Under the pieces are notes generated by a model. That model saw only the letters and a program-made list of their open reading frames with translations, made no database searches and was not told the DNA's origin. 64,000 nt of DNA from Escherichia phage MET-P1-301: the sequence record PV700625, one strand, 5' to 3'. Of the stretch, positions 49,281 to 49,535 are shown one piece after another; position 1 is the stretch's first letter, and every line of letters starts with the position of its first letter. A program made the position numbers and the translations under genes.

Positions 49281-49535
49281 ATTAAATCTTTTTAGAGAAC
49301 TTCTAAGAACCTAAGCAACAAGGTTCCACAACAAGCTGTAATAACCTTAGAAGCCCTCTAAAAAGACCTAAAAGGTCTTTGCATAGTCTTGTTTAATCCG
49401 GTGACTAGAACCTTTGGAGAGCTTGATATTATCTCTTCTCCGTGACACCTACTAGGTGCTTTATCAGTGTGTACGACAATACACGAGGGATAAACCGAAA
49501 ATGCGAGCAAGCATGGACGGTGTAAAATCTTATTA

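Follow-up and report, generated by a model that had tools for sequence, protein, structure and literature searches.

A conserved structured module between two tRNA genes of a Felix O1-like phage: a candidate non-coding RNA in an array that also holds a tmRNA-like element

Escherichia phage MET-P1-301 (sequence record PV700625) is a Felixounavirus, a Felix O1-like phage, and the 64,000-nucleotide stretch of its DNA analysed here (the window) contains 26 tRNA genes, all 26 of them on the minus strand. This orientation of the whole cluster had been missed by an earlier note on the same DNA. The same-strand array has AU-rich linkers of 1-7 nt, and a much longer gap (spacer 1) lies between tRNA-Ser(UGA), its upstream neighbour, and tRNA-Leu(UAG), which heads a tight Leu-Lys-Ala-Gly-Thr block. 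Spacer 1 spans positions 49281-49535 (255 nt), limits that follow from the ARAGORN ends of both flanking tRNAs, and is to be read as the reverse complement, the tRNA strand being the minus strand. The earlier note had placed it at 49285-49535 and given it 250 nt; that end is correct and the start is 4 nt off. The five hairpins that had been listed for it are all found. Two further gaps of the cluster, spacer 2, which includes a tRNA-like element, and spacer 3 (49941-50186), are considered below, and the coordinates of all features are collected in Table 1.

Table 1. Features in and around spacer 1 and in the two further gaps, in order of position in the window.
Feature	Positions	Strand	Basis or remark
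tRNA-Leu(UAG), downstream neighbour	49203-49280	minus	ARAGORN
3' AU-rich linker AAAGAUUUAAU	49281-49291	minus	abuts the RNase P site of tRNA-Leu; 3' border of module
H5, long hairpin of ~20 bp just upstream of tRNA-Leu	49289-49364	minus	covariation
H5 apical loop with UUGUUGCU	49313-49322	minus	invariant in all three stem alleles; CUUGUUGCUU in the window
T hairpin AAAGACC-loop-GGUCUUU, then UUUUUAG	49358-49380 (hairpin 49362-49380)	minus	hypervariable loop
Near-invariant core with H2, H3 and H4	49374-49462	minus	~90 nt; identity across genomes, R1 model
H4, CUAGUC/GACUAG with 14-nt loop ACCGGAUUAAACAA	49382-49408	minus	compensatory change
H3, GGAGA..GAU-AAU-AUC..UCUCC	49416-49441	minus	alignment
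H2, GCACCU-AGU-AGGUGU	49445-49459	minus	6 pairs
H1, GUGUA-UUGUCG-UACAC	49469-49484	minus	5 pairs, 100% paired
H0, variable 5' hairpin	49494-49521	minus	shape kept, sequence not
5' AU-rich linker UAAUAAGAUUUUA	49523-49535	minus	5' border of module
tRNA-Ser(UGA), upstream neighbour	49536-49625	minus	ARAGORN; Rfam tRNA 31.1 bits
tRNA-like element	49639-49721	minus	tRNA-Sec model 23 bits; not called by ARAGORN
Structured non-tRNA part of spacer 2	49722-49863	minus	phage record count, identity
Conserved core of spacer 3, tmRNA-like RNA	49979-50134	minus	weak tmRNA hits, covarying helix and pseudoknot
Tag frame, ANDNVFLAVA and two stop codons	50058-50093	minus	GCA AAC GAC AAU GUU UUU CUG GCA GUA GCU UGA UAG
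Sigma-70 promoter TTGACA-17-TATAGT	50143-50171	minus	11/12 match; 5' end of spacer 3

Read 5' to 3' on the tRNA strand, the module opens with an AU-rich linker, of which AAGAUUUA is retained where a PD-(D/E)XK endonuclease gene replaces the upstream tRNA-Ser (L046/L037). It is followed by H0, which occurs as nine sequence alleles, each folding into a hairpin at one common position (-7 to -16 kcal/mol) and most with a short U-rich tract behind it. H1 varies only by U-A to U-G and A-U to G-U changes, the variants of H2 are all pair-preserving (G-U/A-U, A-U/G-U), variation in H3 is restricted to the apical triloop (AAU, AGC, AGU or GAU), and H4 carries a compensatory change from U-A to C-G in L041 and L055. 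The loop of the T hairpin, 2-5 nt long, comes in at least 10 versions set within otherwise invariant sequence, while the stem variants of this hairpin preserve wobble pairing; the confinement of the variability to the loop indicates that the hairpin forms. H5, inside which the GAACC/GGUUC pairing of the earlier note lies, is found as three sequence alleles, with five pairs changed on both sides and a helix that is 97.9% paired.

The minus-strand RNA of spacer 1 folds with -72.6 kcal/mol (z = -3.61), a stability reached by none of 200 dinucleotide shuffles; the plus strand gives z = -3.19. Among 33 distinct sequences the named structure is 99.2% paired, and compensatory double changes affect six pairs, where shuffles give 1.3 and slid controls 0-2. 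Five of these full compensatory changes are located in H5 and one in H4, and the invariant core accordingly shows almost no covariation, H1-H4 together holding a single compensatory pair. All eight single-sided substitutions in the stems of H1-H4 and T preserve wobble pairing on the minus strand and become C-A mismatches if the plus strand is read; the RNA structure is specific to the tRNA strand.

Conservation analysis, for which the earlier note had called, shows that the module is both widespread within, and confined to, one phage lineage. In a blastn search of 50,697 phage records, among which T4-like phages should be represented, spacer 1 is found in 253, which belong only to Felixounavirus, Mooglevirus and Suspvirus. 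A stretch of 116 nt including the core is at least 93% identical in 253 of 253 records, and in the ten most divergent genomes an 83-nt segment (49383-49465) retains 96.4% identity, compared with 76-100% for the flanking tRNAs of the same genomes (76% for tRNA-Leu). The length of spacer 1 ranges from 241 to 257 nt among relatives, and its borders, which are defined, are also its most variable parts: discrete alleles are swapped for the tRNAs on either side and for the H0 and H5 segments, with the invariant centre as their common anchor. Since the T loop varies freely beside ~90 nt that do not, this invariance reflects selection and not lack of time, and purifying selection acts on every nucleotide of the core. 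A covariance model of the core (R1) scores 164 bits at its place in the window; across the window and 14 loci it finds only the source copy and no second one, and it has no match in 28 further loci, including the tRNA cluster of an Erwinia Kolesnikvirus. In 5,426 E. coli genomes, blastn gives no match to the core at E≤10.

The Rfam/Infernal scan that had been proposed earlier (Rfam 15, 4227 models, judged by the gathering threshold of each family) returns no credible known family and no decayed tRNA for spacer 1: tRNAs alone pass the threshold, no riboswitch model matches, and below threshold (E≤10) only spurious plant miRNA-precursor models are placed on the long hairpin (19.7-29 bits). It is, in our view, extremely unlikely that the hairpins are remnants of decayed tRNA genes or lie in non-functional filler. 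The 255 nt correspond to about three tRNA lengths, the next gap holds a tRNA-like remnant at 49639-49721, and a T-arm-like stretch is present in ncRNA2 of phage PAK_P3, discussed below; however, 49281-49535 has no match to the tRNA clan, nor to the tRNA-Sec and tmRNA models, at E≤10, ARAGORN makes no call there, the T-loop motif (GTTCRANYC) is absent, and 96% conservation across genera combined with pair-preserving substitutions is not expected of a pseudogene.

A small protein gene is only slightly easier to defend and remains very unlikely. Open reading frames are present, and some have been called by RAST/BV-BRC and in the original Felix O1 annotation, the candidates being a 26-codon GTG ORF at 49368-49448 (MSRRRDNIKLSKGSSHRIKQDYAKTF) and an ORF of 65-68 codons that some records list as 'hypothetical protein' or ORF102. 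These annotations, however, differ from genome to genome. The long ORF begins in tRNA-Ser and runs through both H0 and the H1-H2 linker, regions in which the alleles are distinguished by indels of 1-5 nt, not in multiples of three, and the short one lacks usable Shine-Dalgarno spacing, has its C-terminus altered by every variant of the frame-changing T loop and is interrupted by a 1-nt deletion in one genome (L032). Codon periodicity is missing too, all positions being equally invariant with no variation specific to the third. No ORF is kept across relatives, in agreement with the earlier remark that no convincing one exists, and spacer 1 is neither coding nor tRNA-like in character.

In some genomes endonuclease genes are located at the two borders of the module, and in the loci examined none lies inside it. 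In addition to the PD-(D/E)XK gene at the 5' side, an HNH endonuclease gene (150 aa, complete from start to stop) is found just past the 3' border in L023/L025/L033, where it sits after a duplicate of the first 11 nt of tRNA-Leu; L057 has the same junction sequence as this insertion. Another HNH gene, apparently frameshifted, is present between tRNA-Met and tRNA-Ile of the window. Such genes, together with the swapping of tRNA, H0 and H5 alleles around a common core, are what would be seen if spacer 1 acted as DNA, with incidental hairpins, be it as recognition site or repair template of a homing endonuclease, as a recombination linker of mosaic segments or as a replication or packaging signal. 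We consider this improbable, as co-conversion during homing should homogenise the sequence near the insertion sites, whereas it is the borders that vary most and the centre that is invariant. Nor does a function of duplex DNA predict stem substitutions that preserve wobble pairs on one strand, and a hypervariable loop within invariant sequence is a signature of RNA structure.

Transcription signals were sought within spacer 1 as well. A consensus scan (threshold ≥9/12, spacing 16-18) detects no sigma-70 promoter in 49281-49535, and the best candidate after T, TTGCTT-18-TAAAAA, reaches 7/12, lacks the final T and has a spacing of 18-19. With terminators defined by a G+C-rich stem of at least 5 bp, a loop of 3-8 nt and at least 5 U in 8, none is called in spacer 1, including at the T hairpin, whose 7-bp stem has 3 G-C pairs and whose tract of 5 U is partly taken up by pairing with the AAA upstream. 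The motif CTAMAAAGATWWWWAAT, allowing up to 2 mismatches, has just 4 matches, the spacer 1 copy being missed, and the combined pattern ATTGTTGCT...CTAMAAAG has 0; the latter is unable to match the window's own copy because that copy reads CTTGTTGCT. These motif searches gave no evidence for either as a recurrent promoter motif. The Felix O1 genome paper lists a promoter, P45, and nothing for spacer 1, and its terminator table does not include the T hairpin (PMC3185647); our literature search found no Felixounavirus transcriptome or RNA-seq study.

These observations bear on the possibility that spacer 1 is a cis-acting punctuation or attenuation element devoid of any function in trans. H0 and/or the T hairpin would then stop or attenuate transcription from upstream, for example from P45, the core would be a sensor that decides whether the T hairpin or an alternative pairing forms, and H5 would be an RNase III-type site or a 5' stabiliser for the tRNA-Leu-Lys-Ala-Gly-Thr block. 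The RNAalifold consensus indeed favours an alternative to the T hairpin, formed by GGUU:GACC plus UAGGUCUUU:AAAGAUUUA; the two folds are mutually exclusive, the substitutions are compatible with both, and a cis-acting switch fits this result equally well. The U-rich tract behind most H0 alleles is in keeping with such a role, as is the recurrence of a long hairpin followed by the 3' linker motif, AAAGAU(A/U)AAU, before tRNA-Arg(tct) and tRNA-Lys(ttt), both of which come first behind a long gap. In a related phage (L080) an inter-tRNA gap contains a clear terminator and a promoter, and unexplained internal terminators and promoters have been reported for Felix O1 (PMC3185647). We nevertheless regard the cis-acting element as rather unlikely: as a terminator T is weak, being an A/U-rich 7-bp stem with only 5 U that appears neither in our scan nor in the Felix O1 table, it is not followed by a sigma-70-like promoter, no known riboswitch model matches and no ligand class emerges, and simple terminators and processing hairpins can absorb sequence change in the way H0 and H5 do, which leaves ~90 invariant nucleotides unexplained.

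On balance, spacer 1 is probably a lineage-specific structured non-coding RNA of ~250 nt that is co-transcribed within the tRNA precursor and freed by the nucleases that mature the tRNAs. Its conservation, its pairing and the lack of a tRNA match lend support to the earlier proposal of a candidate small stable RNA, and the neighbouring tmRNA-like gap counts in the same direction as a functional RNA gene of the same array. We infer its co-transcription, excision and stability, and any role in trans, as follows. The 5' end would be produced by 3' processing of tRNA-Ser(UGA) and the 3' side by the RNase P cut at the 5' end of tRNA-Leu, potentially with RNase E-type cuts in the AU-rich linkers UAAUAAGAUUU and AAAGAUUUAAU; the 5' linker UAAUAAGAUUUUA looks like the kind of single-stranded AU-rich site that RNase E cuts. 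The end hairpins H0 and H5 may protect the ends of the RNA and/or serve as processing sites, H5 being a candidate 3' stabiliser or RNase III-type site. The core (H2-H3-H4 plus the T hairpin) would be the functional part and might act in trans on a conserved partner, a protein or an RNA, to which it binds during infection.

A ~90-nt RNA with invariant loops as well as stems would be unusual for a simple base-pairing sRNA. Speaking against a trans-acting RNA are the absence of similarity in the E. coli genomes and a complementarity to the window that stays within the shuffle range. An antisense target in the phage was looked for in the rest of the window and rejected, since complementary 11-mers number 28 and shuffles average 12.5 with a maximum of 28; the AAAGACCUUUU matches among them are frequently occurring words, and the hairpin as a whole has no second copy. 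The idea that the core pairs with the tRNA-like element or with spacer 2 or 3 was likewise discarded, duplex energies being no better than those of shuffles.

Several known RNAs arise in comparable settings. The tRNA cluster of phage T4 encodes two small stable RNAs, band C and band D (species 1 and 2), which lie on the tRNA strand, are matured from the tRNA precursor and have no known function. In E. coli, the 3'ETS-leuZ and the internal spacers of metZWV are functional RNAs that are released when RNase E and RNase P process tRNA operons, and they act in trans as sponges. The latter RNAs are ~50 nt long, Hfq-dependent and defined by complementarity to known sRNAs, whereas spacer 1 is five times longer and highly structured, and no complementary partner was found for it. 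Spacer 1 resembles the T4 RNAs in lying on the tRNA strand inside the tRNA cluster of a virulent phage, but it shares no sequence similarity with them (blastn, 50,697 phage records) and differs in its ~250 nt and its six-hairpin layout. Band C/D have been cited as the only example from a virulent phage (PMC4933390). A further case is ncRNA2 (sRNA2) of the Pseudomonas phage PAK_P3, which comes from a large intergenic region between two tRNAs, has no transcription start site of its own, is produced by processing, is conserved throughout its genus and late in infection forms an abundant RNA of ~120 nt, as seen on northern blots (PMC4933390, PMC10914365). Spacer 1 has in common with such RNAs from phage tRNA precursors its position between same-strand tRNAs and no detectable promoter of its own. 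In contrast to spacer 1, expression of ncRNA2 is proven; by eye the two sequences look unrelated, and the T-arm-like stretch of ncRNA2 is absent from spacer 1.

The earlier note had further described 49722-49863 and 49941-50186 as similar hairpin-rich spacers. Both are structured and conserved, but they are not related to spacer 1 or to each other in sequence; the three gaps are judged unrelated because R1 has no other copy in the window. The limit at 49722 also presupposes a tRNA at 49639-49721, for which we find no ARAGORN call, even with a lowered threshold, and only the 23-bit match to the tRNA-Sec model. The element there has an acceptor stem, a T arm (GGGG-UUCAACU-CCUC), an encoded GCCA end and a Trp-type anticodon loop (CUCCAAA) together with an aberrant D region, and it occurs in 235 phage records, almost all of Felixounavirus type. 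The remainder of spacer 2 is found in 253 phage records with the same breakdown by organism as spacer 1 and is 89% identical in divergent genomes.

Spacer 3 differs in kind from spacer 1, in that it encodes a tmRNA-like RNA behind its own promoter. In the window this element starts at the sigma-70 promoter, which corresponds to P45 of the Felix O1 paper (PMC3185647), and runs into tRNA-Arg(UCU). Its core is present in 626 phage records, which cover at least Ounavirinae, Ackermannviridae, Schitoviridae and Skatevirus; 347 of 5426 complete E. coli genomes carry it as well. The tag of E. coli tmRNA (SsrA) is ANDENYALAA. The frame in spacer 3 is comparable: ANDNVFLAVA is read over 10 codons from a GCA resume codon with no start codon or other initiation signals, follows a conserved A-rich sequence (an invariant AUAAAU precedes it) and has a conserved degron-like C-terminus. 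Its stop codons lie in a hairpin, helix 5, that is followed by an H-type pseudoknot; in this helix and pseudoknot 7 of 13 tested pairs are changed on both sides and 97.5% are paired, compared with 0-3 changed pairs in slid controls. The frame is always 10 codons long, and its 19 DNA variants specify 12 peptides that begin with AN(D/E)xxx and end with L(A/M)(A/V)A. In 8 of the 10 codons the third position is variable, neither of the alternative frames is conserved, and codon differences between variants comprise 306 synonymous and 605 non-synonymous changes. The tag frame passes the coding test that spacer 1 fails.

Unlike tmRNA, the element measures only ~160-190 nt, and its tmRNA model scores, 15.7-28.3 bits, fall well short of the gathering score of 47 (RF00023, RF04321). 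Neither ARAGORN nor Rfam finds a canonical tRNA-like domain (7-bp acceptor stem with G3-U70, T arm, 3' CCA) in spacer 3, and in none of the loci does an ARAGORN call for a tmRNA or tRNA overlap with the element. T-arm-like hairpins are seen near it in some phages, and a non-canonical or split domain is compatible with the data. The Trp-like tRNA-like element of spacer 2 was rejected as the missing domain, as the two distributions do not match (235 versus 626 records). A tmRNA database paper from 2025 describes forms without CDS and none without a tRNA-like domain, and six of the tag peptides, sought in the literature, appear in none of the papers searched. The tag template is previously unannotated and is common to hundreds of other phages.

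We tentatively suggest, as a possibility that falls short of a probable one, that the tRNA cluster of Felix O1-type phages is a tRNA-punctuated operon of non-coding RNAs aimed at the translation and RNA-surveillance machinery of the host. Within such an operon, 49979-50134 would be an undescribed, widespread phage tmRNA derivative with tag template and pseudoknot, and the spacer 1 RNA would be a member of the toolkit specific to the Felixounavirus lineage, its partner being a conserved molecule of the cell or of the phage. If the tag template is truly used, phages would re-program or hijack trans-translation with a degron of their own, and the element, if functional, would represent a new viral route to ribosome rescue and proteolytic tagging. 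Spacer 1, for its part, supports the general idea that phage tRNA arrays are expression cassettes in which tRNA processing frees other RNAs, and, as one RNA module under strong selection whose borders are defined, it provides an alignment from which an RNA family can be seeded. Felix O1-like phages, of which hundreds of genomes have been sequenced, are classics of phage typing and biocontrol, and in their annotations ~750 nt of the tRNA cluster are left blank or are given spurious ORFs.

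All 26 tRNA genes of the window (46607-52147) lie on the minus strand according to ARAGORN, so features of the spacers between them have to be read as the reverse complement. Most neighbouring tRNAs are separated by AU-rich linkers of 1-7 nt and long gaps are few. One of these, spacer 1, does lie between tRNA-Ser(tga) and tRNA-Leu(tag) as the earlier note had it, although its extent (there 49285-49535) is corrected by ARAGORN to 49281-49535, or 255 nt; the five hairpins listed for it are all present. For the surrounding 1.2 kb, 276 phage records match at 80-99% identity, and nearly all belong to Felixounavirus and its relatives. 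The minus-strand RNA of spacer 1 folds at -72.6 kcal/mol (z = -3.61), as well as none of 200 shuffles, and the plus strand gives z = -3.19.

Features of the three spacers and flanking tRNAs, with the parts of the spacer-1 module in 5' to 3' order
Feature	Position	Strand	Description or basis
tRNA-Leu(tag)	49203-49280	-	ARAGORN
tRNA-Ser(tga)	49536-49625	-	ARAGORN
Linker UAAUAAGAUUU(U)A		-	5' start of module; alignment
H0		-	Hairpin after 5' linker; sequence in at least 9 unrelated alleles, all folding at the same place
H1		-	GUGUA/UACAC, 3' of H0; alignment
Short linker, H1 to core		-	Indel variation among sequences
Core, ~90 nt	49374-49462	-	H2 (CACCU/AGGUG), H3 (GGAGA..GAU/AUC..UCUCC), H4 (CUAGUC/GACUAG, 14-nt loop)
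T hairpin		-	AAAGACC/GGUCUUU, then UUUUUAG; at least 10 loop variants of 2-5 nt
H5		-	~20-bp hairpin; three sequence alleles, all with UUGUUGCU in apical loop
Linker AAAGAUUUAAU		-	3' end of module, adjoins tRNA-Leu; alignment
tRNA-like element (spacer 2)	49639-49721	-	Acceptor stem, T arm (UUCAACU loop), encoded GCCA end
Structured non-tRNA segment (spacer 2)	49722-49863	-	Conserved hairpins CAUGUU/AACAUG and GAAGCUU/AAGCUUC
tmRNA-like RNA, unannotated (spacer 3)	49979-50134; tag frame 50058-50093	-	Also in loci L090-L093, L211 and about 25 IMG/VR loci

At gathering thresholds, an Rfam scan of the window returned tRNAs only, and spacer 1 matches no tRNA model at E<=10, which rejects both a described RNA family and the decayed tRNA that the earlier note had named as a possible refutation. 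Its view that spacer 1 holds no convincing ORF also stands: the ‘hypothetical proteins’ annotated there vary from record to record. The long ORF starts within tRNA-Ser and runs across 1-5-nt indels, and the end of a 26-codon GTG ORF is altered by every T-loop variant.

Conservation across related phages is extensive. With blastn (word size 11), spacer 1 was found in 253 phage records, each at 80% coverage or more and 80-99.6% identity, from Escherichia, Salmonella, Shigella and Citrobacter phages of Felixounavirus, Mooglevirus and Suspvirus; over 116 nt around the core, identity is 93% or more in 253/253. The core has no match in 5,426 complete E. coli genomes, and Erwinia Kolesnikvirus phages have tRNAs in common and lack the element. 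Among the loci fetched with spacer 1 (31 IMG/VR, 21 metagenome), its length is 241-257 nt (24 distinct sequences). Mobile genes respect the module borders. At the 3' border, L023, L025 and L033 carry a gene for a 150-aa HNH endonuclease (Pfam HNH, 23.2 bits), an insertion in which the first 11 nt of tRNA-Leu are duplicated and which is also present in L057, judged from junction sequence; between tRNA-Ser and the 5' border, L046 carries a PD-(D/E)XK gene (PDDEXK_5, 63.3 bits), as does L037, judged from its upstream flank; in the loci examined, the module itself is free of insertions. L037 (metagenome contig CYGL01000008.1) has the module twice, inverted and about 800 nt apart, on a contig of 102.8 kb that exceeds every Felixounavirus genome; the doubling probably arose in assembly, at a genome end.

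Identity across the ten most divergent genomes is 96.4% for the core, 75% for H0, 69% for H5 and between 76% (Leu-tag) and 100% (Lys-ctt) for the flanking tRNAs. The T loop is saturated with changes while the neighbouring ~90 nt are invariant, so the invariance of the core reflects constraint and not recent origin. Across 35 aligned sequences, pairing reaches 99.2% in the seven named helices, a figure inflated by their definition on the window sequence. Both sides changed in six pairs, versus 1.3 +/- 0.7 in shuffled alignments and 0-2 with slid partners; RNAalifold independently finds five compensatory pairs, and the core proper contains only one. One-sided changes in H1-H4 and T turn A-U or G-C into G-U on the minus strand at 8/8 sites, and each of the eight would be a C-A mismatch on the plus strand. 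Since pairing is thus kept on the minus strand only, the structure belongs to RNA of the tRNA sense; several G-U pairs are already in the majority state of the helices.

How such an RNA would be made is suggested by its surroundings. A consensus scan of the gap found neither a sigma-70 promoter nor a consensus terminator, and the nearest detectable promoter upstream (TTGACA-17-TATAGT, 50171-50143) equals P45 of the Felix O1 genome paper (PMC3185647); two more strong promoters lie upstream of tRNA-Pro. Because the array linkers are short and AU-rich and P45 is the nearest promoter, spacer 1 would be transcribed within a polycistronic tRNA precursor, from which an RNA of ~250 nt would be freed by RNase P at tRNA-Leu and by RNase E-type cleavage within the AU-rich linkers. 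H0 and H5, variable in sequence and fixed in shape, may shield the ends or steer processing, and the function would lie in the invariant core. We lean, by a little, towards this processed RNA, with co-transcription, excision, stability and any trans activity all inferred. Its main rival, which we consider unlikely, is a purely cis-acting terminator or attenuator combined with a processing module; such a role would fit an alternative fold predicted for spacer 1 and the similar hairpins that precede tRNA-Arg(tct) and tRNA-Lys(ttt), but the terminator is poor and the sequence invariance is left unexplained. For the processed RNA, the classical parallel is that of the T4 band C/D RNAs. The closest precedent is ncRNA2 of PAK_P3, likewise sited between phage tRNAs without a TSS, and seen by northern blot as a processed, abundant RNA of ~120 nt (PMC4933390, PMC10914365). 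The candidate small stable RNA of the earlier note is supported as far as sequence analysis reaches, and would be a new, lineage-restricted example of a kind already known, the stable RNAs encoded within phage tRNA clusters. No target stood out by complementarity, and a covariance model of the core found no second copy in the window or in 42 other loci searched, mostly other phages; imperfect searches gave no sign of its motifs recurring elsewhere as promoter-like elements.

Taken alone, spacer 1 is of moderate interest; two things raise it, the resemblance of the whole array to a cassette of functional RNAs and a tmRNA-like tag template among the ‘similar hairpin-rich spacers’ of the earlier note. 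Folding of those two spacers is fair to good (z = -1.84 and -3.77). The tRNA presumed to bound the structured segment of spacer 2 is not called by ARAGORN and scores only 23 bits with the tRNA-Sec model. In its place is a tRNA-like element with a Trp-type anticodon loop (CUCCAAA), an anticodon stem closed by a C-A mismatch and an over-long D region, possibly a tRNA-Trp of unusual form or a mimic of a tRNA; it is kept in 235 phage records, nearly all Felixounavirus-type with a few from Pectobacterium. The adjoining structured segment contains a weak promoter-like TTGAGA-17-AATTAT directly upstream of this element, and is found in 253 phage records whose breakdown by organism equals that of spacer 1.

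Spacer 3 (49941-50186) is structured as claimed but is not the same sort of element as spacer 1. In its core, an invariant AUAAAU is followed by GCA AAC GAC AAU GUU UUU CUG GCA GUA GCU UGA UAG, which reads ANDNVFLAVA and then stops, with no start codon. The E. coli SsrA tag is ANDENYALAA, and the layout is shared. The frame has ten codons in 28/28 sequences (the window and 27 loci), with 19 DNA versions and 12 peptides (e.g. ANDDVVLMAA, ANEEMYLAVA, ANDEQFLAVA); third positions vary in 8/10 codons versus 5/10 for positions 1 and 2, and the two alternative frames have stops at inconstant places. The tmRNA models align exactly at the tag region, at 15.7-28 bits, far under the threshold of 47. On its 3' side, strong covariation is seen in a helix that closes over the stop codons and in an H-type pseudoknot (both-sided changes in 7/13 pairs, 97.5% of cells paired, slid controls 0-3). 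No canonical tRNA-like domain was found, ARAGORN calling neither a tmRNA nor an overlapping tRNA at any locus, and in the window P45 forms the 5' flank. A non-canonical or split domain is conceivable, because some phages have long-range helices and T-arm-like hairpins on the flanks and tRNA-Arg(tct) frequently comes next, as in the window.

The spacer-3 core occurs in 626 phage records of unrelated families, including Erwinia Kolesnikvirus, Klebsiella and Salmonella Ackermannviridae, an N4-like Schitovirus and a 45-kb Skatevirus, and, unannotated, in 347/5,426 E. coli genomes (105 chromosomal and 247 plasmid places), an example being a lambdoid prophage with the element between the Q antiterminator and holin genes. 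The spacer-1 core does not travel with it. We found no published description, and six tag peptides had no match in the literature searched; a 2025 tmRNA database paper lists CDS-less forms and no forms lacking the tRNA domain. The element is a so far unrecognised tmRNA-like tag template spread among enterobacterial phages, prophages and plasmids. In many phages (siphovirus loci of the L085 type and lambdoid loci, such as L211 3375-3740, L144, L092 and L112), it is bracketed by repeated 12-nt strands, GGUAAGAGCAUU and AGUGCUCUUUCC, that can form either a hairpin on each flank or long-range helices nested in one another; a T-arm-like GGCGGUUCGACUCCGC at times adjoins the 3' strand, a topology that recalls the tmRNA acceptor/P2 arrangement.

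Other features of the array were noted on the minus strand. A long hairpin stands at the end of each long gap (49944-49978, 49289-49364 and the 3' end of the gap between tRNA-Asp and tRNA-Lys(ttt), about 50989-51140), with the base CUUU..AGA / UCU..AAAG; after it come AU(A/U)(A)UUAAU and the tRNA that opens the next block. These hairpins may be a shared processing signal. That of spacer 3 has a second allele (…CCCUUAUGGGGCUUGGCUUAA), which also adjoins the tmRNA-like element in L112, an unrelated phage contig of ~42 kb. Four copies of a ~35-nt repeat (51242-51276, 51328-51362, 51785-51819 and 51952-51986 in plus coordinates; ACAGAAGACCnnUUACAGCAAAA on the tRNA strand) sit in gaps of 85-427 nt after tRNA-Glu, tRNA-Met and tRNA-Asp, each pairing with GGUCUGG further downstream, and look like a further family of conserved spacer hairpins. 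Between tRNA-Met and tRNA-Ile, a 495-nt insertion (50263-50757), missing in relatives such as phage skuden (gap 2-3 nt), holds a zinc-ribbon ORF of 90 aa and, in another frame, a separate HNH-motif fragment of 26 aa, an arrangement that suggests a frameshifted homing endonuclease gene. Finally, 47965-48522, within the tRNA cluster, encodes a conserved hypothetical protein of 185 aa, with relatives 58-62% identical in phage contigs of ~120-180 kb and one more, at 77%, in another phage contig; some of these loci also have tRNA genes close by.
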